From Mobula hypostoma (Eukaryota): DNA of 64,000 nucleotides. Of the stretch, positions 6,027-56,710 are shown in pieces. Below the pieces are notes generated by a model. The model saw only the letters and a list, made by a program, of their open reading frames with translations, did not search any database and had not been told where the DNA came from. Position numbers and translations under genes: made by a program. Numbering within the stretch: position 1 is the stretch's first letter; each line of letters opens with the position of its first letter. Location: NCBI RefSeq assembly GCF_963921235.1, contig NC_086097.1, positions 114,578,001 through 114,642,000 on the forward strand. The letters are read 5' to 3'.

Positions 6027-6100
6027 CTGACATGACGCCTTCTACCCCGCCGAGTTGTCTCTCCATAACCTTTTATAGGCTCTCCCAGCACTGCAATTAT
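6027..6100 (-). CDS. TIMM21: TIMM21 coding exon 4
   Basis: caacag|...|gtaagt, 74 bp, encodes IIAVLGEPIKGYGETTRRGRRRHV, the Tim21 KGYGE-x-TRRGRR motif. Later exons not found in the window. Confidence 0.95.
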
Positions 6101-10010: not shown

Positions 10011-10951
10011 TTTAATATATGTAATGTGGAAAACAGAGCATGTTTTCTTTTAATATATAGTACACATCTTCATTTGGCAAATCTGTTAAGAAAAACAAAT
10101 AACAGGCCAGTAAGCATCTTTGGAAAGCAGAGACAGCTTATTGTTCTGGGTGTAAACCAATAGATTGCAAGTTAAGAGGATGACCAGTCCATCAATACAA
10201 TTAGAAATCAGAATCAGATTTATTAGCATCCTACGTTGTGAAATTTGTGTTTTGTGGCACCACAGTGCATACATAACAAGTACTATAAATTACGATAAGA
10301 AATCTATATATGTATAAAATTAATTTAAAATTGAATAAAGAGTGTTGCAAAGAGAACAAAAAGTAGTGAGGTTGTGTTCATGGGTTGGTTCATTGTCCAT
10401 TCAAAAATCTTAAATCTTCTGAAACTGATATCAAAACTGAGCTCTTTTGAGAGATGTTACTGAATCGGTCTTCACCACCTATGGCAGTAGATTTTAAACT
10501 CGTTACAAAAAAAAATAATTCTCTTATATCACTTTTACATTACTTGGTGCCTGCATTAAATGTCTTGTCTGGTTAACCAATGCATCAGTGAAATATTTCC
10601 TCCTCAGTTACTCTGTCAAAACGTACAATCTCCCATTAAGCACTTCTGCAATAAAGAGAGCAACCCTCGCATCGAGCAGTGGTCCCCAACCACCGGGCCG
10701 CAAAGCATGTGCTACCGGGTTGCGAGGAAACGATATGATTTGGCGATATGAGTCAGCTGCATCCTTCCTCATTCCCTGTCACGCGCACTGTTGAACTTGA
10801 ACGTACGCAAGGTCATTACCCGCACATCATCCACGTCAGTGCGGGAAGGAGATCAACTCCTCAAGCTTGCAAATAACGGCAGGCTGAAAAGTATGTTTCA
10901 CATAACATTGCTGCCGGCATTCTGGATCAAAATCAAGGCTAAATATCCTGA

Positions 10952-11651
10952 CAACACACATCAAAGTTGCTGGTGAACGCAGCAGGCCAAGCAGCATCTA
11001 TAGGAAGAGGCGCAGTCGACGTTTCAGGCCGAGACCCTTCGTCAGGACTAACTGAAGGAAGAGTGAGTAAGGGATTTGAAAGCTGGAGGGGGAGGGGGAG
11101 ATGCAAAATGATAGGAGAAGACAGGAGGGGGAGGGATAGAGCCGAGAGCTGGACAGGTGATAGGCAAAAGGGGATACGAGAGGATCATGGGACAGGAGGT
11201 CCGGGAAGAAAGACGGGGGGGGGTGACCCAGAGGATGGGCAAGAGGTATATTCAGAGGGACAGAGGGAGAAAAAGGAGAGTGAGAGAAAGAATGTGTCCC
11301 TCTGTCCCTCTGAATATACCTCTTGCCCATCCTCTGGGTCACCCCCCCCCGTCTTTCTTCCCGGACCTCCTGTCCCATGATCCTCTCGTATCCCCTTTTG
11401 CCTATCACCTGTCCAGCTCTCGGCTCTATCCCTCCCCCTCCTGTCTTCTCCTATCATTTTGCATCTCCCCCTCCCCCTCCAGCTTTCAAATCCCTTACTC
11501 ACTCTTCCTTCAGTTAGTCCTGACGAAGGGTCTCGGGCTGAAACGGCGACTGCGCCTCTTCCTATAGATGCTGCTTGGCCTGCTGCGTTCACCAGCAACT
11601 TTGATGTGTGTTGCTTGAATTTCCAGCATCTGCAGAATTCCTGTTGTTTGC
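10952..11651. mobile_element. Penelope-like element: inverted pair of pseudo-LTRs (fold-back) with 15-bp TSD
   Basis: Arms 10952-11268 and 11297-11613, 28-nt spacer, 38-nt tail, TSD GGCTAAATATCCTGA (10937-10951, 11652-11666). The same sequence adjoins a GIY-YIG ORF end at 27257-28116. Confidence 0.9.
11014..11049 (-). ncRNA. Minimal hammerhead ribozyme motif (Penelope pLTR)
   Basis: AGUC-CUGACGA-AGGGUCUCGGCCU-GAAAC-GUC-GACU: conserved core boxes, stem I AGUC/GACU, GUC cleavage triplet, palindromic ACGU in place of stem III. Confidence 0.8.
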
Positions 11652-13849
11652 GGCTAAATATCCTGAGATAGCCACGAAAGCACTGAAAACGTTGCTTCCA
11701 TTTCCAACATATCTCTGCAATGAATGCAACGAAAACTAAACTGCGGAATAAACTGGACATAAGGAACCCCCTTCCAGTATCGCTGTCTCCCATCACCCCT
11801 CGATGGCACCATCTTATTGCAGGGAAACAAGTATTCAGCCCATGGCTCCCACTGATTCAGCAATATTGGTGTATTACAATGATATTATATGTTCATACGG
11901 GGAAAATATGTATTGTGTGTTTAATATCCAAATGTTACTTAAAATGTTATGATGCTATTGACTTATATAGTTATATAAGTCACTTATAACAATTACAGCA
12001 CGGAAACAGGCCATCTCTGCCCTTCTAGTCTGTGCCGAATGCTATTCTCACCTAGTCCCACCGACCTGCACTCAGCCCATAACCCTCCATTCCTTTCCTG
12101 TCTATATACCTATCCAATTTTTCTTTAAATGATAATATCGAACCTGCCTCTACCACTTCTACTGGAAGTTCATTCAACACTTACTTCAAGCTCCCCTGTT
12201 CTCCCCTGATAATTGACTTATCACTATATTCATGCAAGGAAAATATGCTGTGTGTTTAATATTAAATTCGTTAGATAAATCATTTTAGAAACGAAATTGA
12301 GTGTATTAGCCACTTATCACCTATATTCCGGTCATGATTAACACCCCCCACCCCCGGAACAGAATCGCCAAAAATGATTTGTAGAAAAAAAATTGGCACG
12401 TACACACATGCACACTAGTGCCCGCGCAAGGCTTCATGGTCATTGGAGTCTTTCTCGGGATAAACAACGTATTTGACTGCTGCTCTTGTCCGTTGGCAAC
12501 CCTACCCCACCCCCACCGCGCCCCTCCCCCCGCCCTGGTCGGCCGGTCCGCAAAAATATTGTCAATAATAAACCGGTCCGCGTTGCAAAAAAGTTTGGGG
12601 ACCCCTGGCTTAGAGTTTTGCTGACACTTCAGCTCCCATAATTTTATTGATGCTGTCTCACTTCAAAGTTGAATTTCAATCTCTGGCTTCTTTCCTCTCC
12701 AACGTTTTAAAATAGATCAACAGCTCGTGGAACATGTCACTTAAAGTAAACACACCTAACTTTCTTTCTTATGTAGAGATACAGCAATGTAAAAGGCCCT
12801 TCCAATCCAGTGAGCCTATATGACCATTAACCTACTAACCCATACGTTTTTGGAATGTGGGAGGAAGTCGGAGGACCCGGAGAAAATCCATGCGGGTGGG
12901 GGGGGGGGAAGGGGGAACGTGCAAAATGCTTACAGGCAGCGGTGGGAACCGTACCTGGTGCTCTGGCGCTGTAATAGAGTTACACTAACTTCTACACTAC
13001 CATGCTGCCTCCTTCATTTCTGTAAGTTATTTTGGTTTCATGAATTTGAATCAAAAAGCTACTGGTACAGTTTCCCAGCAAAGCTGATGCATGGCCACAT
13101 CACAACGCAAGAACTATACTCCATGAACTCCATCCCCGCACCCCCACCCAACCTACCCCACCTACATCCCATCATAGTTGCAGCCCCTAATATGGTTATA
13201 ATGGACAGAGCAGGCAGATTTCACACAAGTCCAGCCAAGCTGTAAAATTATTTGCTGGGAATCTCAGGGTTGTGTATATATACTCTGATAATAAATGTAC
13301 TTTGAAAATTTGAATGTGCTAGTTCCCCACCACTTAAAAAGGATTTTCAATAATTACACCTTAGCTTCCCTGCATGCACCATCATGTCCAGTTAACACAC
13401 ACAAAATGCTGGAGGAACTCAGCAGGTCAGGCAGCGTCTCTGCTGACCTAATGAGTCCTTCCAGCTTCTTGTGTGTCGTACTCCAGATTTCCAGCATTTG
13501 CAGAATTGCTTGTGTTCATGTCTGGTTAATAGTTTTGGTAACAGTTGCAAGTTTGCCTGATCTGGAGCAGACTATTTAAGGGTGTGTTTAACTTTGGTGA
13601 AACAGGCTTCATTTTTAACTTAATGCAAACCTGAGGATTGATTCAGAATTTAATTCTGAAACAATTTCCCTTGACGTGTTGATACCTCTTCCTATACAAA
13701 CCAATTGTTCAACTCAATACCTTTTCTGATTATCCGGCTCAGATATGTTACTCTCCGTTATGTGAGATAGACAATGGCTGTCATCGGGAAGTTACAAAGA
13801 AAATTGCTGCTGCAAAAATAACAAAAATTGCAAATAAAGTAATAATCAA

Positions 13850-14877: not shown

Positions 14878-14975
14878 CTCTGGATGGGCTCGACACTTCT
14901 TCAGAGAATCTCCATATATTTTACTTGGACTTGAGGAGGAGAATAGCTCTTTAAATATCACATAGAACAATCCTC
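14878..14975 (-). CDS. TIMM21: TIMM21 coding exon 3
   Basis: tttcag|...|gtatgg, 98 bp, encodes (G)[32 protein letters not shown]; phases 1 to 0 fit both neighbours. Confidence 0.95.
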
Positions 14976-16277
14976 CTGAAATAACAGAAACAGATGTTGA
15001 GAGAGAAGATTTGTGAAGTGAATGCAGTCTTGGAAAATTCTCATGTGTGAAATTCTTCCATTTTTCACAGGATTTGAAAGGGATTTATTCCTTAATATTT
15101 CTTTTTTTTTAACTTATTTTATATTCAGCAGGGCTTCTTTTCCTTCAGAAAACTGTGGAACACAAAACACATCTAGGCTCATTATTCACCCTAATTACTT
15201 CTAGATGCACATTCAAAGCAAAATGTTATCATATCGTAGGTAGTTCACTAGGAGCAGCCTATAACTTGTCTTAGCAGAGCCATTCTTGGGTGTCGAAGGA
15301 AACATGAGATGGCAAGGTTCTACTGGAATCAAACCGGGACCATGCCTTGTTCCACACTCCATCTGAAGCAGTTCCACCTTTGTACCAGTAGCTGTACAAT
15401 CACTCAAGTCAAGTATGCTGTTGTCCAAGGGGTTGTCTATTGGTGGGTCTTCAGAAGACTATAGACGCCAATCTGAGATTCACATATTACTTATATTAAT
15501 ATTACCCCTTATTTTGAAACAGTGAGATCTGATTCTAGATACCCCAACTGGAGAGAGAGAAGAGAAAACTCAAGAGCTATTTAATTGAATTGCTTGGGTC
15601 CTGAGGTGGGACTGAACTTGGGATTGAAGCTCATTAGCACAAGCTTCTGAATTACTAGTTTAGTTTTTTCTGTGGGATGTGTCTAGTAGCACATCCCACA
15701 AACAAAAACTGAATAAAAATCTCTTGCTGCTTTAAGCGCGCATTGACAAGAAGATGATACTTCATACAAGTACATAGCTGGCTGGGGTAAGAGTAGGATG
15801 GACATGTATCCTTTCAAAATCATCAGACTTTCCCAAATATGGAATACCCCAGGGAGAGAATCTGCTAATACTATAAAGCTGCAAGAGTTGCTCCACTGAT
15901 ATCTTGCTGGTGACTTACTTTAGAGTTAAGATTGGTAATGAATTGTCTTTATATTCTGTTTATGAAAATTCATGCTGACAGATGCTCAGAAGCAGATCTA
16001 ACTCTTACAGTCATACGGGTAGGTATTGGACAGGGAAGGGCCATAACCGCTAGTAGGAGAGATGTCTGCTCATCTCAGTTCTTATTTTGAACAGTGAGAT
16101 GTGATTCTAGGTTTCCCAACCAGAGAGAAAACAGTTCCCAGTTATTTAATTGAATTTAAACTGCTCAGGTGCTGAGGTGGGATTGAACTTCTGTAGGCTT
16201 ATTAGCCAAGGCTTCTGATTACTAATGCACATCCTCGTAGTACATTCCACAAAATAAATAAACTGAATAAAGATCTA

Positions 16278-16423
16278 AACACGAGGAAATCTGCAGATGC
16301 TGGAAATTCAAGCAACACACAAAAAGTGCTGACGAAGGGTCTCGGCCCGAAATGTCGACTGTACTTCTTCCTAGAGATACTGCCTGGCCTGCTGCGTTCC
16401 ACCAGCATTTGGTGTGTGTTGCT
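16278..16423. mobile_element. 146-bp inverted Penelope mini-insertion with 14-bp TSD
   Basis: TSD TGAATAAAGATCTA (16264-16277, 16424-16437). An inverted tail is joined to a pLTR piece starting at CTGACGA; hammerhead GAAAC is changed to GAAAT. Confidence 0.8.
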
Positions 16424-16839
16424 TGAATAAAGATCTACCTTGGTGCTTTGTCCACATAGACAATGAGATGATACTAACTGAAATCACCTAATGCGATAAA
16501 ATTGATAAGCATATTCACTGATTAATGTCAGATATAGTTCAGGAACAAGGTTTCAGGATTATAATTCATTTCGCTGTGCCTTACTACACACCCAAAGTGC
16601 CGGGAGGGACCTGAGAGACCTATCATGTACCCAGCCCAGCTGACAGTGCACAGAAACCAGAACTTTGGAGTGAAGGAGGGTAAGAGGTGACTTGATAGGA
16701 GGTGTACAAGATGATACGAGGCTAAGAGGCAAAGAGGCATAGATTGAGTAGCTAACCAGAGACTTGGGTCCAGGGTGGAAGTGCATTATATGAGCATAAT
16801 TTTAAGGTGAAAAGATGATAATACTGGCTGAGTCAAACA

Positions 16840-19800
16840 CCCTCTGCAGCCCTTTTCGAACCAGTGCAATGCAGCTTCCTTATGTTACACCCAGTCAGAT
16901 TGCTCTCCACTGTAATGCATCTATAGAAAGTTACAGGAGTCTTTAGTAACATACTAAATCTTCTTAAACTCCAAACAAAACAGAGCAGCTATTGTGGCTT
17001 TCCTTGTGATGATATCAATGTGTTGGACCCAGAAGTGATCCTCTAAGCTCATCCTTTCCACAGCTCACCCCTCAATGAGGACGGCTGAGTGTTCCCCCAA
17101 ATTCCCCATCCTGAAGTCAACAATCAATTCCTTAGTCTTGCTCTCCGTCACCCAGCTGACCTATCTCACTCCTGTGCACCTCCCTGTCACCCAGCTGATC
17201 TATCTCACTCCTGTGCACCTCCCTGTCACCCAGCTGATCTATCTCACTCCTGTGCACCTCCCTGTCACCCAGCTGATCTATCTCACTCCTGTGCACCTCC
17301 CTGTCACCCAGCTGATCTATCTCACTCCTGTGCACCTCCCTGTCACCCAGCTGACCTATCTCACTCCTGTGCACCTCCCTGTCACCCAGCTGATCTATCT
17401 CACTCCTGTGCACCTCCCTGTCACCCAGCTGATCTATCTCACTCCTGTGCACCTCCCTGTCACCCAGCTGATCTATCTCACTCCTGTGCACCTGTCACCC
17501 AGCTGATCTATCTCACTCCTGTGCACCTCCCTGTCTCCCAGCTGATCTATCTCACTCCTGTGCACCTCCCTGTCACCCAGCTGATCTATCTCACTCCTGT
17601 GCACCTCCCTTTCACCCAGCTGATCTATCTCACTCCTGTGCACCTCCCTGTCACCCAGCTGATCTATCTCACTCCTGTGCACCTCCCTGTCACCCAGCTG
17701 ATCTATCTCACTCCTGTGCACCTCCCTGTCACCCAGCTGATCTATCTCACTCCTGTGCACCTGTCACCCAGCTGATCTATCTCACTCCTGTGCACCTCCC
17801 TGTCACCCAGCTGATCTATCTCACTCCTGTGCACCTCCCTGTCACCCAGCTGATCTATCTCACTCCTGTGCACCTCCCTGTCACCCAGCTGATCTATCTC
17901 ACTCCTGTGCACCTGTCACACAGCTGATCTATCTCACTCCTGTGCACCTCCCTGTGACCCAGCTGATCTATCTCACTCCTGTGCACCTCCCTGTCGCCCA
18001 GCTGATCTATCTCACTCCTGTGCACCTCCCTGTCACCCAGCTGATCTATCTCACTCCTGTGCACCTGTCGCCCAGCTGATCTATCTCACTCCTGTGCACC
18101 TCCCTGTCACCCAGCTGATCTATCTCACTCCTGTGCACCTCCCTGTCACCCAGCTGATCTATCTCACTCCTGTGCACCTGTCACCCAGCTGATCTATCTC
18201 ACTCCTGTGCACCTCCCTGTCACCCAGCTGATCTATCTCACTCCTGTGCACCTGTCACCCAGCTGATCTATCTCACTCCTGTGCACCTCCCTGTCACCCA
18301 GCTGATCTATCTCACTCCTGTGCACCTGTCACCCAGCTGATCTATCTCACTCCTGTGCACCTGTCACCCAGCTGATCTATCTCACTCCTGTGCACCTCCC
18401 TGTCACCCAGCTGATCTATCTCACTCCTGTGCACCTCCCTGCCACCCAGCTGATCTATCTCACTCCTGTGCACCTCCCTGTCACCCAGCTGATCTACCTC
18501 ACTCCTGTGCACCTCCCTGTCACCCAGCTGATCTATCTCACTCCTGTGCACCTCCCTGTCACCCAGCTGATCTATCTCACTCCTGTGCACCTCCCTGCCA
18601 CCCAGCTGATCTATCTCACTCCTGTGCACCTCCCTGTCACCCAGCTGATCTACCTCACTCCTGTGCACCTCCCCGTCACCCAGCTGATCTATCTCACTCC
18701 TGTGCACCTGTCACCCAGCTGATCTATCTCACTCCTGTGCACCTCCCTGTCACCCAGCTGATCTATCTCACTCCTGTGCACCTCCCTGTCACCCAGCTGA
18801 TCTATCTCACTCCTGTGCACCTCTCTGTCACCCAGCTGATCTATCTCACTCCTGTGCACCTGTCACCCAGCTGATCTATCTCACTCCTGTGCACCTCCCT
18901 ATCACCCAGCTGATCTATCTCACTCCTGTGCACCTCCCTGTCACCCAGCTGATCTATCTCACTCCTGTGCACCTCTCTGTCACCCAGCTGATCTATCTCA
19001 CTCCTGTGCACCTGTCACCCAGCTGATCTATCTCACTCCTGTGCACCTGTCACCCAGCTGATCTATCTCACTCCTGTGCACCTGTAACCCACCTGATCTA
19101 TCTCACTCCTGTGCACCTCCCTGTCACCCAGCTGATCTATCTGACTCCTGTGCACCTCCCTGTCACCCAGCTGATCTATCTCACTCCTGTGCACCTGTCA
19201 CCCAGCTGATCTATCTCACTCCTGTGCACCTCCCTGTCACCCAGCTGATCTATCTCACTCCTGTGCACCTCCCTGTCACCCAGCTGATCTATCTCACTCC
19301 TGTGCACCTCCCTGTCACCCAGCTGATCTATCTCACTCCTGTGCACCTCCCTGTCACCCAGCTGATCTATCTCGCTCCTGTGCACCTGTCACCCAGCTGA
19401 TCTATCTCACTCCTGTGCACCTCCCTGTCACCCAGCTGATCTATCTCACTCCTGTGCACCTGTCACCCAGCTGATCTATCTCACTCCTGTGCACCTCCCT
19501 GTCACCCAGCTGATCTATCTCACTCCTGTGCACCTCCCTTTCACCCAGCTGATCTATCTCACTCCTGTGCACCTCCCTGTCACCCAGCTGATCTATCTCG
19601 CTCCTGGGCACCTGTCACCCAGCTGATCTATCTCACTCCTGTGCACCTCCCTGTCACCCAGCTGATCTATCTCACTCCTGTGCACCTCCCTGTCACCCAG
19701 CTGATCTATCTCACTCCTGTGCACCTCCCTGTCACCCAGCTGATCTATCTCACTCCTGTGCACCTGTCACCCAGCTGATCTACCTCACTCCTGTGCACCT

Positions 19801-22800
19801 CTCTGTCACCCAGCTGATCTATCTCACTCCTGTGCACCTGTCATCCAGCTGATCTATCTCACTCCTGTGCACCTCCCTATCACCCAGCTGATCTATCTCA
19901 CTCCTGTGCACCTGTCACCCAGCTGATCTATCTCACTCCTGTGCACCTCCCTGTCACCCAGCTGATCTATCTCACTCCTGTGCACCTCCCTGTCACCCAG
20001 CTGATCTATCTCACTCCTGTGCACCTGTCACCCAGCTGATCTATCTCACTCCTGTGCACCTCCCTGTCACCCAGCTGATCTATCTCACTCCTGTGCACCT
20101 CCCTGTCACCCAGCTGATCTATCTCGCTCCTGGGCACCTGTCACCCAGCTGATCTATCTCACTCCTGTGCACCTCCCTGTCGCCCAGCTGATCTATCTCA
20201 CTCCTGTGCACCTGTCACCCAGCTGATCTATCTCACTCCTGTGCACCTCCCTGTCACCCAGCTGATCTATCTCACTCCTGTGCACCTGTCACCCAGCTGA
20301 TCTATCTCACTCCTGTGCACCTCCCTGTCACCCAGCTGATCTATCTCACTCCTGTGCACCTGTCACCCAGCTGATCTATCTCACTCCTGTGCACCTCCCT
20401 GTCACCCAGCTGATCTATCTCACTCCTGTGCACCTCCCTGTCACCCAGCTGATCTATTTCACTCCTGTGCACCTGTCACCCAGCTGATCTATCTCACTCC
20501 TGTGCACCTCCCTGTCACCCAGCTGATCTATCTCACTCCTGTGCACCTCCCTGTCACCCAGCTGATCTATCTCACTCCTGTGCACCTGTCACCCAGCTGA
20601 TCTATCTCACTCCTGTGCACCTGTCACCCAGCTGATCTATCTCACTCCTGTGCACCTCCCTATCACCCAGCTGATCTATCTCACTCCTGTGCACCTGTCG
20701 CCCAGCTGATCTATCTCACTCCTGTGCACCTCCATGTCACCCAGCTGATCTATCTCACTCCTGTGCACCTGTCACCCAGCTGATCTATCTCACTCCTGTG
20801 CACCTGTCACCCAGCTGATCTATCTCACTCCTGTGCACCTCCCTGTGACCCAGCTGATCTATCTCACTCCTGTGCACCTCCCTGTCGCCCAGCTGATCTA
20901 TCTCACTCCTGTGCACCTCCCTGTCACCCAGCTGATCTATCTCACTCCTGTGCACCTGTCGCCCAGCTGATCTATCTCACTCCTGTGCACCTCCCTGTCA
21001 CCCAGCTGATCTATCTCACTCCTGTGCACCTCCCTGTCACCCAGCTGATCTATCTCACTCCTGTGCACCTGTCACCCAGCTGATCTATCTCACTCCTGTG
21101 CACCTCCCTGTCACCCAGCTGATCTATCTCACTCCTGTGCACCTGTCACCCAGCTGATCTATCTCACTCCTGTGCACCTGTCACCCAGCTGATCTATCTC
21201 ACTCCTGTGCACCTCCCTGTCACCCAGCTGATCTATCTCACTCCTGTGCACCTCCCTGCCACCCAGCTGATCTATCTCACTCCTGTGCACCTCCCTGTCA
21301 CCCAGCTGATCTACCTCACTCCTGTGCACCTCCCTGTCACCCAGCTGATCTATCTCACTCCTGTGCACCTCCCTGTTACCCAGCTGATCTATCTCACTCC
21401 TGTGCACCTCCCTGCCACCCAGCTGATCTATCTCACTCCTGTGCACCTCCCTGTCACCCAGCTGATCTACCTCACTCCTGTGCACCTCCCCGTCACCCAG
21501 CTGATCTATCTCACTCCTGTGCACCTGTCACCCAGCTGATCTATCTCACTCCTGTGCACCTCCCTGTCACCCAGCTGATCTATCTCACTCCTGTGCACCT
21601 CCCTGTCGCCCAGCTGATCTATCTCACTCCTGTGCACCTCTCTGTCACCCAGCTGATCTATCTCACTCCTGTGCACCTGTCACCCAGCTGATCTATCTCA
21701 CTCCTGTGCACCTCCCTGTCACCCAGCTGATCTATCTCACTCCTGTGCACCTCTCTGTCACCCAGCTGATCTATCTCACTCCTGTGCACCTGTCACCCAG
21801 CTGATCTATCTCACTCCTGTGCACCTGTCACCCAGCTGATCTATCTCACTCCTGTGCACCTGTAACCCACCTGATCTATCTCACTCCTGTGCACCTCCCT
21901 GTCACCCAGCTGATCTATCTGACTCCTGTGCACCTCCCTGTCACCCAGCTGATCTATCTCACTCCTGTGCACCTGTCACCCAGCTGATCTATCTCACTCC
22001 TGTGCACCTCCCTGTCACCCAGCTGATCTATCTCACTCCTGTGCACCTCCCTGTCACCCAGCTGATCTATCTCACTCCTGTGCACCTCCCTGTCACCCAG
22101 CTGATCTATCTCACTCCTGTGCACCTCCCTGTCACCCAGCTGATCTATCTCACTCCTGTGCACCTCCCTGTCACCCAGCTGATCTATCTCGCTCCTGTGC
22201 ACCTGTCACCCAGCTGATCTATCTCACTCCTGTGCACCTCCCTGTCACCCAGCTGATCTATCTCACTCCTGTGCACCTGTCACCCAGCTGATCTATCTCA
22301 CTCCTGTGCACCTCCCTGTCACCCAGCTGATCTATCTCACTCCTGTGCACCTCCCTGTCACCCAGCTGATCTATCTCACTCCTGTGCACCTCCCTGTCAC
22401 CCAGCTGATCTATCTCGCTCCTGGGCACCTGTCACCCAGCTGATCTATCTCACTCCTGTGCACCTCCCTGTCACCCAGCTGATCTATCTCACTCCTGTGC
22501 ACCTCCCTGTCACCCAGCTGATCTATCTCACTCCTGTGCACCTCCCTGTCACCCAGCTGATCTATCTCACTCCTGTGCACCTGTCACCCAGCTGATCTAC
22601 CTCACTCCTGTGCACCTCTCTGTCACCCAGCTGATCTATCTCACTCCTGTGCACCTGTCATCCAGCTGATCTATCTCACTCCTGTGCACCTCCCTATCAC
22701 CCAGCTGATCTATCTCACTCCTGTGCACCTGTCACCCAGCTGATCTATCTCACTCCTGTGCACCTCCCTGTCACCCAGCTGATCTATCTCACTCCTGTGC

Positions 22801-24700
22801 ACCTCCCTGTCACCCAGCTGATCTATCTCACTCCTGTGCACCTGTCACCCAGCTGATCTATCTCACTCCTGTGCACCTCCCTGTCACCCAGCTGATCTAT
22901 CTCACTCCTGTGCACCTCCCTGTCACCCAGCTGATCTATCTCGCTCCTGGGCACCTGTCACCCAGCTGATCTATCTCACTCCTGTGCACCTCCCTGTCGC
23001 CCAGCTGATCTATCTCACTCCTGTGCACCTGTCACCCAGCTGATCTATCTCACTCCTGTGCACCTCCCTGTCACCCAGCTGATCTATCTCACTCCTGTGC
23101 ACCTGTCACCCAGCTGATCTATCTCACTCCTGTGCACCTCCCTGTCACCCAGCTGATCTATCTCACTCCTGTGCACCTGTCACCCAGCTGATCTATCTCA
23201 CTCCTGTGCACCTCCCTGTCACCCAGCTGATCTATCTCACTCCTGTGCACCTCCCTGTCACCCAGCTGATCTATTTCACTCCTGTGCACCTGTCACCCAG
23301 CTGATCTATCTCACTCCTGTGCACCTCCCTGTCACCCAGCTGATCTATCTCACTCCTGTGCACCTGTCACCCAGCTGATCTATCTCACTCCTGTGCACCT
23401 GTCACCCAGCTGATCTATCTCACTCCTGTGCACCTCCCTATCACCCAGCTGATCTATCTCACTCCTGTGCACCTGTCGCCCAGCTGATCTATCTCACTCC
23501 TGTGCACCTCCATGTCACCCAGCTGATCTATCTCACTCCTGTGCACCTGTCACCCAGCTGATCTATCTCACTCCTGTGCACCTCCCTGTCACCCAGCTGA
23601 TCTATCTCACTCCTGTGCACCTCCCTGTCACCCAGCTGATCTATCTCACTCCTGTGCACCTCCCTGTCGCCCAGCTGATCTATCTGACTCCTGTGCACCT
23701 CCCTGTCACCCAGCTGATCTATCTCACTCCTGTGCACCTGTCGCCCAGCTGATCTATCTCACTCCTGTGCACCTCCCTGTCACCCAGCTGATCTATCTCA
23801 CTCCTGTGCACCTCCCTGTCACCCAGCTGATCTATTTCACTCCTGTGCACCTCCCTGTCACCCAGCTGATCTATCTCACTCCTGTGCACCTGTCACCCAG
23901 CTGATCTATCTCACTCCTGTGCACCTGTCACCCAGCTGATCTATCTCACTCCTGTGCACCTCCCTGTCGCCCAGCTGATCTATCTCACTCCTGTGCACCT
24001 GTCACCCAGCTGATCTATCTCACTCCTGTGCACCTCCCTGTCACCCAGCTGATCTATCTCACTCCTGTGCACCTCCCTGTCACCCAGCTGATCTATCTCA
24101 CTCCTGTGCACCTCCCTGTCACCCAGCTGATCTATCTCACTCCTGTGCACCTCCCTGTCACCCAGCTGATCTATCTCACTCCTGTGCACCTGTCACCCAG
24201 CTGATCTATCTCACTCCTGTGCACCTCCCTGTCGCCCAGCTGATCTATCTCACTCCTGTGCACCTGTCACCCAGCTGATCTATCTCACTCCTGTGCACCT
24301 CCCTGTCGCCCAGCTGATCTATCTCACTCCTGTGCACCTGTCACCCAGCTGATCTATCTCACTCCTGTGCACCTCCCTGTCGCTATCTGAGATCTTACCA
24401 AGGACAGTGGTGTCATCTATGAATTTATAAATGACATTTGAACTGCGTGTGGCCACAGTCATGTGTTTAGAGAGCACAGCAGTGCGTGGGCTAAGCAGGC
24501 ATCCTTGAGGTGTGTCTGTGTTGATTAACAAAGAGGAAGACTACTGATCTGTACTGACTCCCGGGAGCGACAGAAGCCCAGGTTTAGAAACTCAGTGATT
24601 AAATCTGAGGGGATAATGGTATTGAACACTGAGCTGTAATTGATGAACAGCAAGCAGCTTGATGCAGGTTTTGCTGCTGTCTGGGCTCTCCAAAGGGGAA
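16840..24700 (-). mobile_element. Rex1/Babar LINE fragment interrupted by the minisatellite
   Basis: Right flank LLFINYSSVFNTIIP, TPQGCLLSP, KFIDDTTVLGKISDSD; left flank KTKELIVDFR and further 3' RT sequence. Confidence 0.85.
17147..24383. repeat. 7.2-kb minisatellite of 39-bp and 35-bp units (about 190 copies)
   Basis: Unit GTCACCCAGCTGATCTATCTCACTCCTGTGCAC(CTCC)CT, very homogeneous, with interspersed 4-bp-deletion variants. Confidence 0.98.
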
Positions 24701-26593: not shown

Positions 26594-27256
26594 TTAGGAA
26601 AAGCTGGGAATTCACCTCAACACAAAGATAAATATCAGCGTGGGCCAAGAGGGAGGAAGGGAAAGAGGGAAGGATAGATAAATAAGAATTTATGATAAAT
26701 AAGTAATTTGAAGACTATTCATTTTCAACTGGCCAGAACAACAACTTAAAATTAAAGATGGTAATAATTTTATACAATTAATTTTCAGGTGTGTACACAA
26801 TTCATTATTGTTCTATCACTTCTTCTCCTCTCCCTCCCTTTTTACGATACTCCTTGCAATTCTAAAGTGGCCACTTTAGGTACGCCTTGTACAGCTGCTC
26901 GTTAATGCAAATATCTAATCAGTCCAATGTGTGGCAGCAGCACAATTTATAAAAGCATGCAGACATGGTCAAGGGGTTCAGTTACTGTCCAGACCAAACA
27001 TCAGAATGGGGAAGAAAAGTGACTTTGACAGTGTCAAGATGATAGGTAGTTTGAGTATCTCAGAAACCGCTGATCTCCTGAGAGTTTCATGCATAAGCGT
27101 TACAGAGAACAGTGTGAAAAACAAACAACATCCAGTGAGCAAACGTTCTGTGGGCAAAAACACCTTGTTACTGAGAGAGGTCAGAGGAGAATGGCCAGAC
27201 TGGTTCCAGCTGACAGACTGGCAACAGTATCACAAATAACCACACGTTACACAACA

Positions 27257-28116
27257 CACATCAAAGTTGCTGGTGAGCGCAGCAGGCCAGGCAGCATCTC
27301 TAGGAAGAGGTACAGTCGACGTTTCGGGCCGAGACCCTTCGTCAGGACTAACTGAAGGAAGAGCTAGTAAGAGATTTGAAAGTGGAAGGGGGAGATCCAA
27401 AATGATAGGAGAAGACAGGAGGGGGAGGGATGGAGCCAAGAGCTGGACAGGTGATTGGCAAAAGGGATATGAGAGGATCATGGGACAGGAGGCCCAGGGA
27501 GAAAGAAAAGGGGGGGGAACCCAGAGGATGGGCAAGGGGTATAGCCAGAGGGACAGAGGGAGAAAAAGGAGAGAGCGAGAAAGAATGTATGTATATAAAT
27601 AAATAAAGGATGGGGTACGAGGGGGAGGTGGGGCATTAGTGGAAGTTAGAGAAGTCAATGTTCATGCCATCAGGTTGGAGGCTACCCAGACGGAATATAA
27701 GGTGTTGTTCCTCCAAGCTGAGTGTGGCTTCATCTTTACAGTAGAGGAGGCCGTGGATAGACATGTCAGAATGGGAATGGGATGTGGAATTAAAATGTGT
27801 GGCCACTGGGAGATCCTGCTTTCTCTGGCGAACAGAGTGTAGGTGTTCAGCGAAAGTCTCCCAGTCTGCGTCGGGTCTCGCCAATATATAGAAGGCCACA
27901 TTTGGAGTACCGGATGCAGTATATCACCCCAGCCGACTCACAGGTGAAGTGTCGCCTCACCTGGAAGGACTGTCTGGGGCCCTGAATGGTGGTAAGGGAG
28001 AAAGTGTAAGGGCATGTGTAGCACTTGTTCTGCTTACAAGGATAAGAGCCAGGAGGGAGATCAGTGGGGAGGGATGGGGGGGACGAACGGACAAGGGAGT
28101 CGTGTAGGGAGTGATC
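27257..28116 (-). mobile_element. 5'-truncated Penelope-like retroelement (GIY-YIG endonuclease C-terminus plus pLTR)
   Basis: CKQNKCYTC...GVIYCIRYSKCGLLYIGETRRRL...EHL...VATHFN...EEQHLIFRLGSLQPDGMN. TSD CA(C/T)GTTACACAACA at 27243-27256 and 28117-28130. Confidence 0.92.
27314..27349 (-). ncRNA. Minimal hammerhead ribozyme motif (Penelope pLTR)
   Basis: AGUC-CUGACGA-AGGGUCUCGGCCC-GAAAC-GUC-GACU, core intact. Confidence 0.85.
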
Positions 28117-28361
28117 CATGTTACACAACAGTGGTGTTGAGAAGAGAATCTCTGAAACGACACATCCAAACCTGAAGTGGACGGGCTATAGCAGCAAACA
28201 TACACTGTGCCCAGTTAATTAGGTACAGGAGGCACATAATAAAGTGGCCGTTTAAATACAAAAAAAATTGCAAAACCTAAAATAGAGATTAATACTTGAC
28301 AACTTCGGTTAATATCATACATATATTTATATAAAGATGTACATGCACAAGAAAAACTTAC

Positions 28362-28424
28362 CTGTTATGCCAATCCCAACCAACACGACGAGAAGATAGG
28401 TAAGGTCTTTTCCAGCTTCTTTCA
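28362..28424 (-). CDS. TIMM21: TIMM21 coding exon 2 (transmembrane segment)
   Basis: ttcag|...|gtaagt, 63 bp, encodes (V)KEAGKDLTYLLVVLVGIGIT(G), matching recalled Tim21 [22 protein letters not shown]. Confidence 0.95.
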
Positions 28425-33509: not shown

Positions 33510-33905
33510 ATGGTCAGCCTAATTATGCCGTGTGGAAAGAGAAGGGGGACATTACGGTCAAGAGATTACGCCAAACGTCGTTGGGAAGCGGCAAGGAGAG
33601 GGAGCGAACAAGAATTGGATGAGGTCAGGGCCGCACGACTCCAGGATCAAAGAGTCAGGACAAAAAAGATAAAACAAGAGACAGAGGAGGAGAGGCATGC
33701 ACATCTCCAAAATGACAACAACTGGCACAGAAGGAGGAGAGAACAAGAATCGGATCAGGCCAGGGCTGCACGACTCCAGGATCAGAGAGAAAGAACAAAT
33801 GGTAGAACAGTTGAAGAGACGAAGGATGAAAAGGCTGCACATCTCCAGAATGACAACAACTGCCAACAAAGTTGCTGTCATTATACCGAACAGCATCGAA
33901 CCTGA
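33510..33905 (+). pseudogene. Helitron RepHel N-terminal fragment with STPR-like repeats
   Basis: EQELDEVRAARLQDQR / ETEEERHAHLQND / EQESDQARAARLQDQR / ETKDEKAAHLQND; 135-bp (45-aa) period, i.e. pairs of 22-23-aa ETxEERxxRL-like repeats. Confidence 0.65.
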
Positions 33906-33917
33906 AGCAAGATCATG

Positions 33918-34323
33918 GCATCCCATAATTTCAATGAGGAACTTGGATCCACCAAGGCTTTGCAATGGAACGCGAATGATGGTGGAAGAACTGCACGACA
34001 ATCTCATTGTAGCAAAGATAAACACGGGTGCGTTCAAAAATGACATTGTCATGATCCCAAGAATTACTCTCAGTTTATCAGAAGGGGAAGATGTCCCTCT
34101 TCAGCGGAGCCAGTTCCCGATACAGTCATGCTTTGCTATGACTATACATAAGGCACAAGGCCAAACCATGGAGAACGTGTTGATTTATCTGGAGAAACCG
34201 GTATTCCAGCATGGTCAGCTGTATGTGGCTTTAACCCGGGGAAAAAGAAATGAAAACATTAGAGTATTCTTGAAGGGTGGCAGATCAACCAGAAATGTTG
34301 TCATCAAAAGTGTCCTTCGTTAA
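33918..34323 (+). pseudogene. Helitron PIF1-family (SF1) helicase C-terminal fragment
   Basis: RNLDPPRLCNGTR, IPRI, RSQFPIQSCFAMTIHKAQGQT, VFQHGQLYVALTR, TRNVV; no internal stops. Walker A/B and HUH Rep domain are absent. Confidence 0.9.
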
Positions 34324-39655: not shown

Positions 39656-40589
39656 CCCTGCCATCTGCCCCTGCTGCCTGCCAATAAATCAGTGAACAAG
39701 ACTTGCAGAATTCCACACTAACGATGCCCAAAGGGGTAAGACGATCACTGGCAAGAAAAGTGACCAAGACTGTCACTTGCTAATAGACTGCATGCCTTCT
39801 TCACACAACGAAGCTTCTATGACACAAACGGCCGCACGATCCGCACCTCACAGACTTTCGTGTATTACAAAATAATGTTTCTTCAAATTCAGACTCTGTT
39901 GCAACGTGACAGCCAATTTATACAAGGCAAAACATTACAATGAGCAGTGAGGCGATTGTGTTGCTGACAATATTGCTTTGAGAATAAGATTTATACGGGA
40001 AAGGTAAAAAATCAAAACAAGCATTGGCCTGGAATCCAATAACTGAGACTGTACCAGTATGTCCAATTTTATTATTTCACTTTTAGCGGTTGCCATCTGC
40101 TGTTAGTGGAGACCCAATAGCTTCAGGTATACATTGCCTCATTAAAGATTTCAGCCCCAACTCTTTGTTCACATAAATGAGTATTACAATCAGGGATTTT
40201 GATCAATTTAGCTGAGAATTTTTATTTGTGAATCTCATGCGCTTTTTCCCCCCACAGTGGAGCCCAAAAATACAGAGAAAATTATAAAGCATGAAAAACT
40301 ATAAGTTCAAAAACTGAAATGTCAACAGTTCAAAAGCATTCATCCCCTTTGCTCAGTACTTAATTGAACCACTCTCGCAGCCATTACAGCCAGTCGTCTT
40401 TCTGGATAAGTCTCTATTAACTTTGCACATGTGATGGAGCAAGACTTGCCCATTCCTCCTTGCAAAATTGCTCAAGATGTGTCAGATTAGTTGGGGAGAG
40501 AGGGTGGCTTTGGATCATTGACCTGCTGGAAGATGAAATTTGCTCCCCAGTTTAAGCTATCTGGTAGAGGCTGGCAGGTTTTATCCAAA

Positions 40590-40998
40590 TAACAGGAATT
40601 CTGCAGATGCTAGAAATTCAAGCAACACACATCAAAGTTGCTGGTGAACGCAGCAGGCCAGGCAGCATCTCTAGGAAGAGGTGCAGTCGACGTTTCAGGC
40701 CGAGACCCTTCGTCAGGACTAACTGAAGGAAGAGTTAGTAAGAGATTTGAAAGTGGGAGGGGGAGGGGGAGATCCAAAATGATAGGAGAAGACAGGAGGG
40801 GGAGGGATGGAGCCAAGAGCTGGACAGGTGATTGGCAAAGGGGATATGAGAGGATCATGGGACAGGAGGCCCAGGGAGAAAGACAAAGGCTGGGGGGAAC
40901 CCAGAGGATGGGCAAGGGGTATAGTCAGAGGGACAGAGGGAGAAAAAGGAGAGTGAGAGAAAGAATGTGTGTATAAAAATAAGTAACGGATGGGGTAC
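40590..40998 (-). mobile_element. Solo Penelope pLTR plus tail inserted in Tc1
   Basis: Highly similar to 27257-27620 and 11297-11651; host Tc1 sequence resumes at AAGATCTTCTCTG. Confidence 0.88.
40685..40720 (-). ncRNA. Minimal hammerhead ribozyme motif (Penelope pLTR)
   Basis: AGUC-CUGACGA-AGGGUCUCGGCCU-GAAAC-GUC-GACU, core intact. Confidence 0.8.
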
Positions 40999-43291
40999 AA
41001 GATCTTCTCTGTATTTAGCAGCATTTATTTTCCCATCATTCCTGACCAGATTTCCAGTCCCTGCAGCTGAAAAGCATCCCCGTAGTATGATGGTACCTCC
41101 ACCATACTTTACAATAGGGATGGTGTTACCTGGCTGATGCACAGTATTAGATTTATGACACACGTGTCACTTTGTGTTGAGGCCAAAAAGTTCCACTTCA
41201 GTCTCATCTGACCACAAGACCTTCTTCCACATCTTTACATTAACTTCTAATTGACACTTTGCAAAGCCTTTACAGGTAAGGATGTGCCTTTTTTTAGCCA
41301 AGGCTTCTTCCTTGCCACTCTTCCATAAATACCCTTTTTGTGCAAGACCTTAGAGACTGTGGAGCCAAGAACAATCTTCAATTGCAGCCAGTAACTTCTC
41401 ACTTAGACTGTTGGCATCACAGTAGCAGACAAAGTCATAGAGTCATGGAAAAGTGCGGCACAAAAGCAGGCCCTTTGACACACCTAGTGCATGCCAAACC
41501 ATTTAAACACATGTATCATAACCACTGCACACAGAATTCATTAACAGTAATATAACGTTGACATACAAAATATAATCTCATCAGTAACTCAAATACCATC
41601 GCAGAGAAAATCATCAACAGGAGATTCTGCATATGCTGGAAATCCAGATCAACACACACAACATGCTGGAGGAACTCAGCAGGCCAGGCAGCATCTATAG
41701 AGAGGAATTAGCAGTTGACATTTCAGGCTGGGAATTTTCATCGTATTTTGTGTGTGTTGCAGAGAAAACTAGAGTGCAATTTTTCCCCTATTTGTGTACC
41801 TTTCTAAAGCTGAAAAAATTAGTGTGCGCTAACTAGTCATTGTCCCCATTTATTTCAACAGGGATGAGCAAATGAACAACAAACTCACCATCTGGGACAC
41901 TGGAGTTAAGAGTGCCATTTGGACACAGCTAAATTCTTTCTTCCCCCAAACATTATGGCTGCAGTAGAAATGAGTATCCTGTTTATATACAAGTGCAGAC
42001 TTTATGAAAGTAAATTTATTATCAAATTACTGGCTGAGATTTGTCCTCTTGCGGGCGTTTACAGTAAACACAAAGAAGCCCAACAGAACCAATGAAAATC
42101 CACACTGAAATGGACTGCCTCTCTTACAAGTGCTACTCGACTCCAGCGACTAAGTTTAGAGGAGTGTCCTGACCTAAGCAATGTGATTATGGTTTCACAA
42201 TGGACTACACTGAGCTCAGATAATCTTTTTACCTTTCCCCAGACTTACTCTTCACCATTATCATTTCCCTGACTTGCCTTGAATGCTCTTTCGTCTTCAC
42301 TTTGGTTTGGTCTGCTGAAAATCTACCATACTGTCAGACCTTACCAAGAGAGGGGAATTTAAAAATAGGCATCTGTTAGTCTGGTGAGACTATGGATTTG
42401 TGCCTTGGAAGGTTTCCAGGGCGCAGGCCTGGACAAGGTTGTATGGAAGACCAGTAGTTGCCTATGCTGCAAGTCTCCCCTCTCCAAGCCACTAATATTG
42501 TCCAAGGGAAGGGCACTAGGACCCATACAGCTTGGCACCAGTGTCGTCACAGAACAATGTGTGGTTAAACAGGCCACAACATGCAGTCACTAGACCGCCA
42601 CCTTAACCAATTGGCCATGTGCCAACACACTGAGGGAAATTTATTCTTAACAATTCATTGAAAACAGGTGACCCTCCAAATTCGGCCCGAAACATCCACT
42701 GTACTTTTTTTTCTGTAGATGCTGCCTGACCTGCTGAGTTCCTCCAGTACTTTGTGTGTGTTGTTTGGATTGTCTCGTATTTGTGAGCCTCCAATTCACT
42801 ACATTAACAAACTAGGTGAGGTGGTACAGTAATACCTTGTATTTTAGCTGAGGAATGTTGGCATAGTAATTACAAAGGGGATGAATACTTTTTCAGCCTC
42901 AGTTTTGGTTTTTAAATTTTTAGTAAATTGTTGACAGGTTTTGGAATTTTTCTTTTGACTTGACATGGCGCACAACTTTTGCAGATTAGATCAAAAATCA
43001 TATTTCAATACTTCTTAAATTTAGAAAAGAGATAATAAAATGTGAAAATAGTTGTGGGAGCTGAATACTTTTTCAATGCACTGTATAGTTTCTCATAAAT
43101 TACATTGTATCTCTTTACTTTCCTGCAAATGCCTGCAAGAAAATATATCTCAAGGCAGAATATGATAACGTATACGTACTTTGATAATAAATTTTACTTT
43201 GATTTTGACTTAATTCGGTGTAGGCAATGCTAATATTTTTCTTTCACACGTCGAAACTTTGAATTCAGAGGCCCCTTTCTGCAAGGATTAC

Positions 43292-55380: not shown

Positions 55381-55429
55381 CCTAAAGACTGTCACCATAG
55401 TTCTAAAGAAGTTTTAAGAACATGGGAGT

Positions 55430-56710
55430 GGTGAAGGAGGGCAATTACCAGAAGTTCAAGAAATTGATGTTCATGCCATCAGCTTGAAGGCTACCCAGAT
55501 GGAATATAAGGTGTTGCTCCTCCATCCTGAGTGTGGCCTCATTGCGGCAGAAGACAAGGCCATGGACAGACATATTGGAATAGGAACGGTCAGTAGAATT
55601 GAAATGGGTGGCACTGGGAGATCCTGCTTTTTCTGGCGGAGTGCTCAGCTAAGTGACTTCCCACTCTACGTTGGGTCTCACCACTATACAAGAGGCTACC
55701 CCGGGAGGTCCAGACACAATATATGACCCCAACAGACACACAGGTTAAGTGTCGCCTCACCTGGAAGGACTGTTTGGGGCTCTGAATGGTAGTGAGGGAG
55801 GAGGCGTAGGGGCAGGTGTTGCACTTGTTCCGCTTGCAAGAATAAGTACCAGGAAGGGAGATCAGTGGGGAGAGATGCATGGAGTCGTGCACAGAGTGAT
55901 CCCTGCGGAAAGCAGAAAATGGGGGGGGGGAGGAGAGGAAAGATGTGCTTGGTGGTGGGATCCTGTTGGTGGTGATGGAAGTTAAGGAGAATTATGTGCT
56001 GGATGCAGAGGTTGGTGGGGTGGTAGGTGAGGACAAAATGAACCCTATCTCTGGTGGGGAGGCAGGAGGATGGGGTGAGGGCAGACATGCACAAAATGGA
56101 AGCGATGCAGGTGAGCGCAGCACAGAAAGGGGCTTTCCTTCCTCCACCATCAATGCTGCCAGAAAAAGTGGGATCTCCCGATGGCCATCCATTTCAATTC
56201 TACTTCCCATTTCCTTTTTGACATGTCATTCGATGCCCCCCTCCACTGTCGTGATGAGGCCACACTTAGGTTGGAGGAACAACACCTTATTTTCTGTTTG
56301 GATAGCCTCCAACCTGATGGCATGACTATCGATTTCTCACTATCAATTTCTCGAACCTCTGGTAATTCGCTCCCCCTCTCCTTCACCATTCCCCATTCCA
56401 GTTTCCTTTCTCACATCTCCTTACCCGCCCATCAACTCCCTCCACCTTCCCTTTCTTCCATGATCTTCTACCCCCTCCTATCAGATCCCCCCTTCTCCAG
56501 CCCTTTATCTCTTTCATTGATCGAATTCCCAGCTCTTTACTTCACCCCCCCTCTCAGTTTCACCTATCACCCACCACCTTGTACTTCTTCCTCCCCGCCT
56601 CCACCTTATCCTGACTTCTGATGAAAGGTCTTGACCCGTAACATCGACTGCACTCTTTTCCATAGATGCTGCCTGGCTTGCTGAGTTCATCCAGCATTTT
56701 GTGTGTGTTG
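55430..56710. mobile_element. Penelope-like element with internal inversion
   Basis: Minus-strand GIY-YIG region (55450-56110) abuts a plus-strand ORF end (LRLEEQHLIFCLDSLQPDGM) and pLTR with a decayed hammerhead CTGATGA..CCCGTAACATCGACT near 56618-56650. Confidence 0.85.

Follow-up and report, generated by a model that had tools for sequence, protein, structure and literature searches.

The insert at positions 10952-11651 of the window (the whole 64,000-nt stretch of DNA that was analysed) is, with high probability, a truncated head-to-head insertion of a Penelope-like element (PLE) with two arms, which is flanked by a 15-bp target-site duplication (TSD), bears a 38-base tail on one side only, is likely recent and likely arose by two runs of reverse transcription (RT), the differences between its arms being likely unselected. 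Judged from its sequence, it is assigned to an endonuclease-bearing (EN+) PLE that inserted head-to-head with 5' truncation, an architecture that is already published. It is most likely a real, young and ordinary example of this published insertion pattern, in which the clustering of the two arm differences does not reflect selection.

Anatomy and target site of the insert

The inverted arms identified by the repeat finder extend over positions 10952-11268 and 11297-11613, each being 317 nt long and the two being separated by a spacer of 28 nt. The first-pass annotation had described arms with only two mismatches, and this was borne out by a base-by-base comparison, in which 2 of the 317 positions differed (pairs 11019/11546 and 11028/11537). 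The changes in the right arm are 11537 C>G and 11546 T>G, and the G residues at both sites are regarded as derived, because C and T occupy these positions in the left arm as well as in the two further long family copies of the window (40586-40970 and 27252-27588). The left arm, which starts with CAACACACA, is a 345-nt 5'-truncated pLTR copy lacking a tail, and by base comparison and blast it covers positions 10952-11296 on the minus strand; the blast alignment of the insert with the copy at 40.6 kb spans positions 1-346. Its final 28 nt (11269-11296, minus strand) constitute the hairpin loop and were recognized as family sequence by comparison with other family copies. The right arm (11297-11613, plus strand; repeat finder and comparison) is a 317-nt 5'-truncated pLTR copy that has 1 nt of sequence overlap at its joint with the left arm. 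It alone is followed by the 38-nt PLE tail (11614-11651, plus strand; base comparison), and a tail of the same 38-nt type is present on four other stubs in the window.

The TSD, GGCTAAATATCCTGA, was located by a direct-repeat search and base comparison, and its left and right copies (10937-10951 and 11652-11666, both plus strand) are identical at 15 of 15 positions. This duplication and the tail uphold the earlier view that they mark one recent insertion; a recent date is likely because the arms are 99.4% alike and the TSD is perfect. The sequence interrupted by the insert is a host repeat (10677-11833, plus strand; translation) that is high-copy in the reads, and its translation reads ...KAKYP to the left of the insert and AKYPEIATK... 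to its right, the reading frame being split at the duplicated 15-mer. This repeat resembles the decayed 3' end of a hAT (Charlie-type) transposase; no confirmation of this label was obtained from Pfam or Atlas, and Atlas matches of the repeat to bacterial IS110, all below 0.9, were discarded. Elsewhere in the window, 214-bp inverted repeats with 4 mismatches (56-269 and 1385-1598) lie 1.1 kb apart and resemble a Tc1/mariner-type DNA transposon, and an open frame of 216 codons on the plus strand (33673-34323) resembles the C-terminus of a Helitron PIF1-type helicase.

Sequence reads were compared with positions 11269-11960, i.e., one arm and the right flank, in 4 of the 23 listed runs, all of them made up of contigs, at an identity bar of 95%. 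Among the matches listed, loose ends at 11652 revealed contigs with an uninterrupted target in X1, X2 and X5 (three of the four runs), and these support the TSD, but as paralogous sites and not as evidence that this locus itself is found empty. Some contigs join the end of the PLE arm to the same host-repeat site without a tail (11612 to 11653 in X1 and X2, and 11616 to 11653 in X9), and these joints may represent other insertions at the same spot in other copies of the host repeat. At position 11421, the alternative base T accounted for 0.34-0.36 of the depth in DNA runs of organism A and for 0.95 in organism B, which gives a hint that the subfamily expanded in the lineage of organism A, with the proviso that depth is not copy number.

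Several other identities were considered for the insert. Symmetric terminal inverted repeats that reach both ends, as in a MITE or a fold-back DNA transposon, were not found in it, and such elements were ruled out by the 38-nt tail lying outside the repeat on one side and by the retroelement pLTR sequence. A non-LTR retrozyme, which is defined by tandem head-to-tail repeats of a hammerhead unit in the account consulted (bioRxiv 10.64898/2026.07.22.740005), was rejected as the insert consists of a single head-to-head pair on opposite strands. Searches of the insert against Rfam yielded 35 matches, of which all 35 were below the gathering score; miRNA models alone were matched, and no hammerhead. 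A microRNA precursor was rejected on this ground, and the sub-threshold miRNA matches are explained by the generic nature of the hairpin shape.

Family relationships and formation of the two arms

The Penelope-like origin and minimal hammerhead proposed in the first-pass annotation are backed by a family link to RT and GIY-YIG proteins. In an older family copy (27252-28119, minus strand; translation, protein search and pattern match), the pLTR seen in the insert is linked with the decayed remains of a Cys-linker and of a GIY-YIG endonuclease end (27642-28119). The decayed reading frame of this copy contains a CKQNKCYTC linker and a VIY...YIG motif, and the copy carries an intact hammerhead, sense to TIMM21, at 27314-27349. 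In Atlas, the piece from 27.9 kb grouped with eukaryotic clusters at 0.94-0.95, some of which have GIY-YIG on 10% of their members, and a protein search with the same piece recovered 10 proteins among 78 candidates, all of them from Mobula or Hypanus, which makes a myliobatiform ray the likely host. The ray protein P0001 possesses both a YIDD motif and the Cys linker, and Pfam assigns GIY-YIG to it at E 4.6e-4, which is below the curated cut-off; its C-terminus is identical to the translation of the left arm at 28 of 32 positions; GIY-YIG was matched by Pfam in two of the three proteins scanned. When eight pieces of the window were searched against Pfam, TIM21 was matched on three, and nothing useful was obtained on the two PLE and three host-repeat pieces. 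Metagenome scans for two family motifs found 0 loci for each.

The combination of a PLE-type RT with a C-terminal GIY-YIG domain, by which EN+ elements are recognized, is thus seen in the family copy at 27642-28119 and in P0001, and not within the insert itself. The insert contributes the inverted 5'-truncated pLTR partner, the 38-nt tail at one end and the 15/15 TSD, and an inverted partner of this kind, a tail and a TSD are described as standard for PLEs (PMC8557442; PMC3846280). The CKQNKCYTC sequence of the 27.9-kb copy conforms to the CX2-5CxxC linker upstream of GIY-YIG that defines Neptune or Nematis (Craig et al., 2021, PMC8557442). Based upon this linker motif rather than upon an RT tree, we infer that the family is an EN+ PLE with a linker of the Neptune or Nematis type.

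The window contains three further two-armed stubs, at 13.4, 16.3 and 41.7 kb, each of which has a TSD in the range of 12-14 nt and a tail at one end only, and all three are older than the insert at 10952-11651. The stub at 16264-16437 is a miniature two-armed form with an exact 14-bp TSD and a left-side tail, and the start of its long arm coincides with the 5' boundary of the hammerhead core (CTGACGA at 16329). Those at 13382-13529 and 41599-41768 have degenerate TSDs (14 nt with 2 mismatches and 12 nt with 1 mismatch, respectively). Additionally, a pair of decayed, oppositely oriented PLE endonuclease ends that are only about 77% alike is present at 55400-56710, and the pair stems either from one old two-armed insertion or from two independent insertions.

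The asymmetry of the arms fits two separate priming events from a staggered double cut. In the sequence of events that we envisage, the GIY-YIG endonuclease of the element would nick each strand of the target, with 15 bases between the two cuts. The 3' end of the top strand would prime cDNA synthesis at the tail-less start site and be extended for 345 nt, whereas priming by the 3' end of the bottom strand would take place at the tail site, which lies 38 nt further 3', with an extension of 355 nt. Both cDNA ends would then be joined via the 1-nt overlap, with repair filling in the remainder. The same source element presumably templated both runs, since 22 columns that are common to both arms set them apart from both other copies. 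A PLE of Anolis has been reported to cut and extend both strands in vitro and to start RT at two sites, one at each boundary of the tail (PMC11167929), and the insert, which illustrates the separate copying of both arms, agrees with this 2024 model. However, the two-run mechanism is drawn from this one in vitro study of another clade, and for palindromic junctions self-priming on an antisense template has been favoured (Arkhipova, 2013, PMC3846280).

Self-priming of this kind bears on whether the hairpin arose by the folding back of a single cDNA, which, along with a chimera of the assembly, we consider very improbable. The proposal of self-priming for palindromic PLE junctions (PMC3846280) speaks for such an origin, and none of the contigs listed spans the whole stretch. 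However, the tail is confined to the right arm and positions 11269-11296 to the left, so that each arm has family sequence absent from the other and self-priming on one strand cannot account for the other, in either direction; a self-folded cDNA is excluded because folding back can recopy only sequence that is already held. In addition, the 3' end of the would-be primer pairs at only 1 base before a mismatch. The earlier term fold-back hence remains apt for the shape of the insert but not for its origin. Also against such an origin stand the exact TSD, which interrupts the reading frame of the host repeat, and the uninterrupted copies of the target in the reads. At three other joints among those listed in X1 and X2, contigs pass from antisense into sense sequence, in keeping with an architecture that is common here.

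The TIMM21 transcript and the hammerhead motifs

A TIMM21-like gene is present on the minus strand, with exons at 28362-28424, 14878-14975 and 6027-6100 whose Pfam TIM21 matches (E 0.18, which is weak, 4.2e-8 and 1.2e-4) cover model positions 3-23, 23-55 and 57-81, respectively. Exon 1 and a CpG island were looked for in the window and neither was found. The exons upstream and downstream of the insert are of 98 nt (14878-14975) and 74 nt (6027-6100), both on the minus strand, and the earlier placement of the insert in a TIMM21 intron is correct with regard to the interval between them; its designation as intron 3 presumes the exon layout of human TIMM21. A minisatellite of about 7 kb (approximately 17000-24400), whose units measure 39 and 35 nt and which shows a higher-order periodicity of about 2.8 kb, also lies in a TIMM21 intron.

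As TIMM21 is on the minus strand, its transcript reads the right arm in antisense and then the left arm in sense with the intact hammerhead. The folding energy of the insert RNA is approximately -702 kcal/mol, as compared with -714 kcal/mol for identical arms, and 34 of the 36 bases of the intact hammerhead have an unpaired probability of about 0. These predictions agree with the earlier suggestion that a 317-bp RNA hairpin sequesters the intact ribozyme; buried in this hairpin of the TIMM21 pre-mRNA, the hammerhead is predicted not to cleave. Among the changes listed, no T>C appeared in the one putative RNA run, a result that has no bearing on editing of the hairpin. A spacer of 28 nt disfavours cruciform extrusion. 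The intact sense hammerhead at 27314-27349, which by blast is without an inverted partner, lies in the adjacent TIMM21 intron.

Pattern matching identified an intact minimal type I motif in the left arm (11014-11049, minus strand), where the CUGANGA, GAAA and NUH boxes as well as the closing stem I are present. The corresponding motif of the right arm (11516-11551, plus strand; pattern match and comparison), which is antisense to TIMM21, lacks a valid NUH. In the numbering of Cervera and De la Pena, as we apply it to the motif, position 11546 is U16.1 of the GUC triplet and is invariant, and 11537 belongs to the third pair of stem II. Both mismatches had been ascribed to the hammerhead core; they do lie inside the 36-nt motif, but only 11546 is an invariant core base and 11537 is part of stem II. 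The base at hammerhead position 11.1 is U in both arms (11539 and 11026) and in the 40.7-kb copy, giving a G-U pair, whereas the usual G-C pair at 10.1-11.1 is kept in the copies at 27.3 kb and 16.3 kb. When folded in isolation, the 36-mers of both motifs are predicted to adopt other shapes. In the account of Cervera and De la Pena (PMC4209133), cleavage in vitro was absent for a lone minimal hammerhead and weak for dimers.

The two arm differences and relation to known systems

The probability that two independent hits would both fall in 36 of 317 bases is 0.013, that of two hits lying ≤9 nt apart anywhere is 0.056 and that of one 10-nt cluster falling inside the motif is 0.088, values that are to be read with the knowledge that the feature was chosen post hoc from many such copies. 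Both changes are transversions, both damage the ribozyme and both copy an adjacent G, which is expected by chance about 5.5% of the time. Among the differences seen in other copies, 0/27, 1/36 and 1/19 fall inside the motif, which is thus otherwise conserved and no obvious mutation hot spot at the DNA level; these counts speak against plain chance. A search of the window for a local template of the mutated 16-mer turned up a single 12-mer, at 46.4 kb, which we ascribe to chance. The likely account of the two G residues is one clustered slip of copying or repair, a later neutral change or a base-calling error, in a copy whose damaged motif is antisense to the host gene. That they are real and neutral is the reading to which we give slightly better than even weight.

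A sizeable share of the remaining probability goes to errors of base calling or polishing within a long inverted repeat whose real arms are identical; biologically, this reading is contained in the favoured explanation. Each G repeats the preceding plus-strand base and lies after, or ≤10 nt from, a GGC within an inverted repeat, and this fits the error profile of Illumina sequencing, where lag errors repeat the preceding base near inverted repeats and GGC (PMC3141275); the accuracy of Nanopore sequencing is also described to drop in inverted duplicates (PMC7229812). Depth over 11533-11556 is 0.20-0.33 of that in neighbouring bins in four of four runs, but a real change private to the insert predicts the same dip. 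The dip indicates that the double-G form is uncommon within the family, with both a private change and an error predicting it, and short family contigs containing both differences fall below the 95% bar of the comparison, so that the absence of 11537 and 11546 from the variant rows listed favours neither reading. Against an error, consensus substitutions are rare in modern long-read assemblies.

We consider it unlikely, albeit not to the extreme, that the changes are a scar left by RT stumbling at the hammerhead of a folded, cut or re-ligated RNA template, in which case arm differences would pile up near the cut site genome-wide. Two separate RT runs allow the arms to differ from the outset, and position 11546 is the second base copied past the predicted cut (between 11548 and 11547). 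Moreover, at both sites the cDNA base made by bottom-strand RT is the complement of the next template base, and such copying is a pattern of RT dislocation error (PMC3185545). At the error rates of retroviral RT, the probability of at least two independent errors over both arms is only 0.002-0.07, and a purely RT origin consequently needs a cluster or a hot spot. However, this is a single case, the motif is nearly unchanged in the other window copies and the left arm was copied through the same motif without error. In the study of the Anolis element, the cut site marked neither the start nor the end of any RNA read, and insertion by ribozyme mutants was normal (PMC11167929).

Selection had been put forward earlier as a possible cause of the clustering, and that it removed ribozyme activity or loosened the hairpin, thereby protecting the host locus, appears highly unlikely to us. 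Both changes are damaging, they fall within 11% of the arm (p 0.013) and with them the hairpin energy is higher by about 12 kcal/mol; however, a loss of 12 of about 714 kcal/mol leaves the predicted hairpin intact, and the U16.1 change alone would be enough. The changes sit in the arm that is antisense to TIMM21 and the sense copy is intact and predicted to be buried, whereas selection via the host RNA predicts that the left arm, and not the right, would be the damaged one. The partnerless sense hammerhead at 27314-27349 persists intact in the adjacent intron of the same gene, a plus-strand transcript over the locus was not identified, and the lack of in vitro cleavage by a lone minimal hammerhead (PMC4209133) likewise speaks against it. 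The suggestion of selection is hence not sustained. In the open-access literature covered, nothing was found on arm-to-arm differences in PLE hammerheads. If a scar of RT at the ribozyme were the true explanation, young two-armed insertions would serve as natural paired-copy assays of fidelity, and arm differences near the cleavage site across the genome would be in vivo evidence of ribozyme action in transposition; clustering at the ribozyme genome-wide, if true, would bear on the question of whether PLE hammerheads cut in vivo.

With the minimal type I hammerheads that Cervera and De la Pena (2014, PMC4209133) described in metazoan PLEs, the motifs of the insert share the CUGANGA and GAAA boxes, an additional base between 9 and 10.1, a palindromic 15.2-16.2, the lack of stem III and a short stem I. 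They differ from this type in having a stem II of about 3 bp and a G-U pair at 10.1-11.1 in both arms, and the right copy lacks U16.1. Pairs of hammerheads on opposite strands, 100-700 bp apart, have already been published for Schistosoma (PMC4209133). In common with the canonical EN+ PLE insertion unit (PMC3846280; PMC8557442), the insert shows a head-to-head inverted 5'-truncated neighbour copy, a tail of 30-40 bp at one end and a TSD flanking the unit. In contrast to it, the insert has no ORF, both arms end inside the pLTR, the TSD is of 15 bp as against 8-10 bp in the rotifer examples (PMC3846280; PMC8557442), and the junction consists of a 28-nt asymmetric loop rather than a palindrome. 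A close experimental parallel in formation is with PAc, the Poseidon element of Anolis carolinensis that Frangieh et al. (2024, PMC11167929) analysed in vitro; PAc shares the two RT starts bounding the tail, an AC-rich start, the cutting and extension of both strands and an AT-rich target. PAc belongs to Poseidon, whereas the family described here, known from sequence alone, has a Cys-rich linker like that of Neptune or Nematis.
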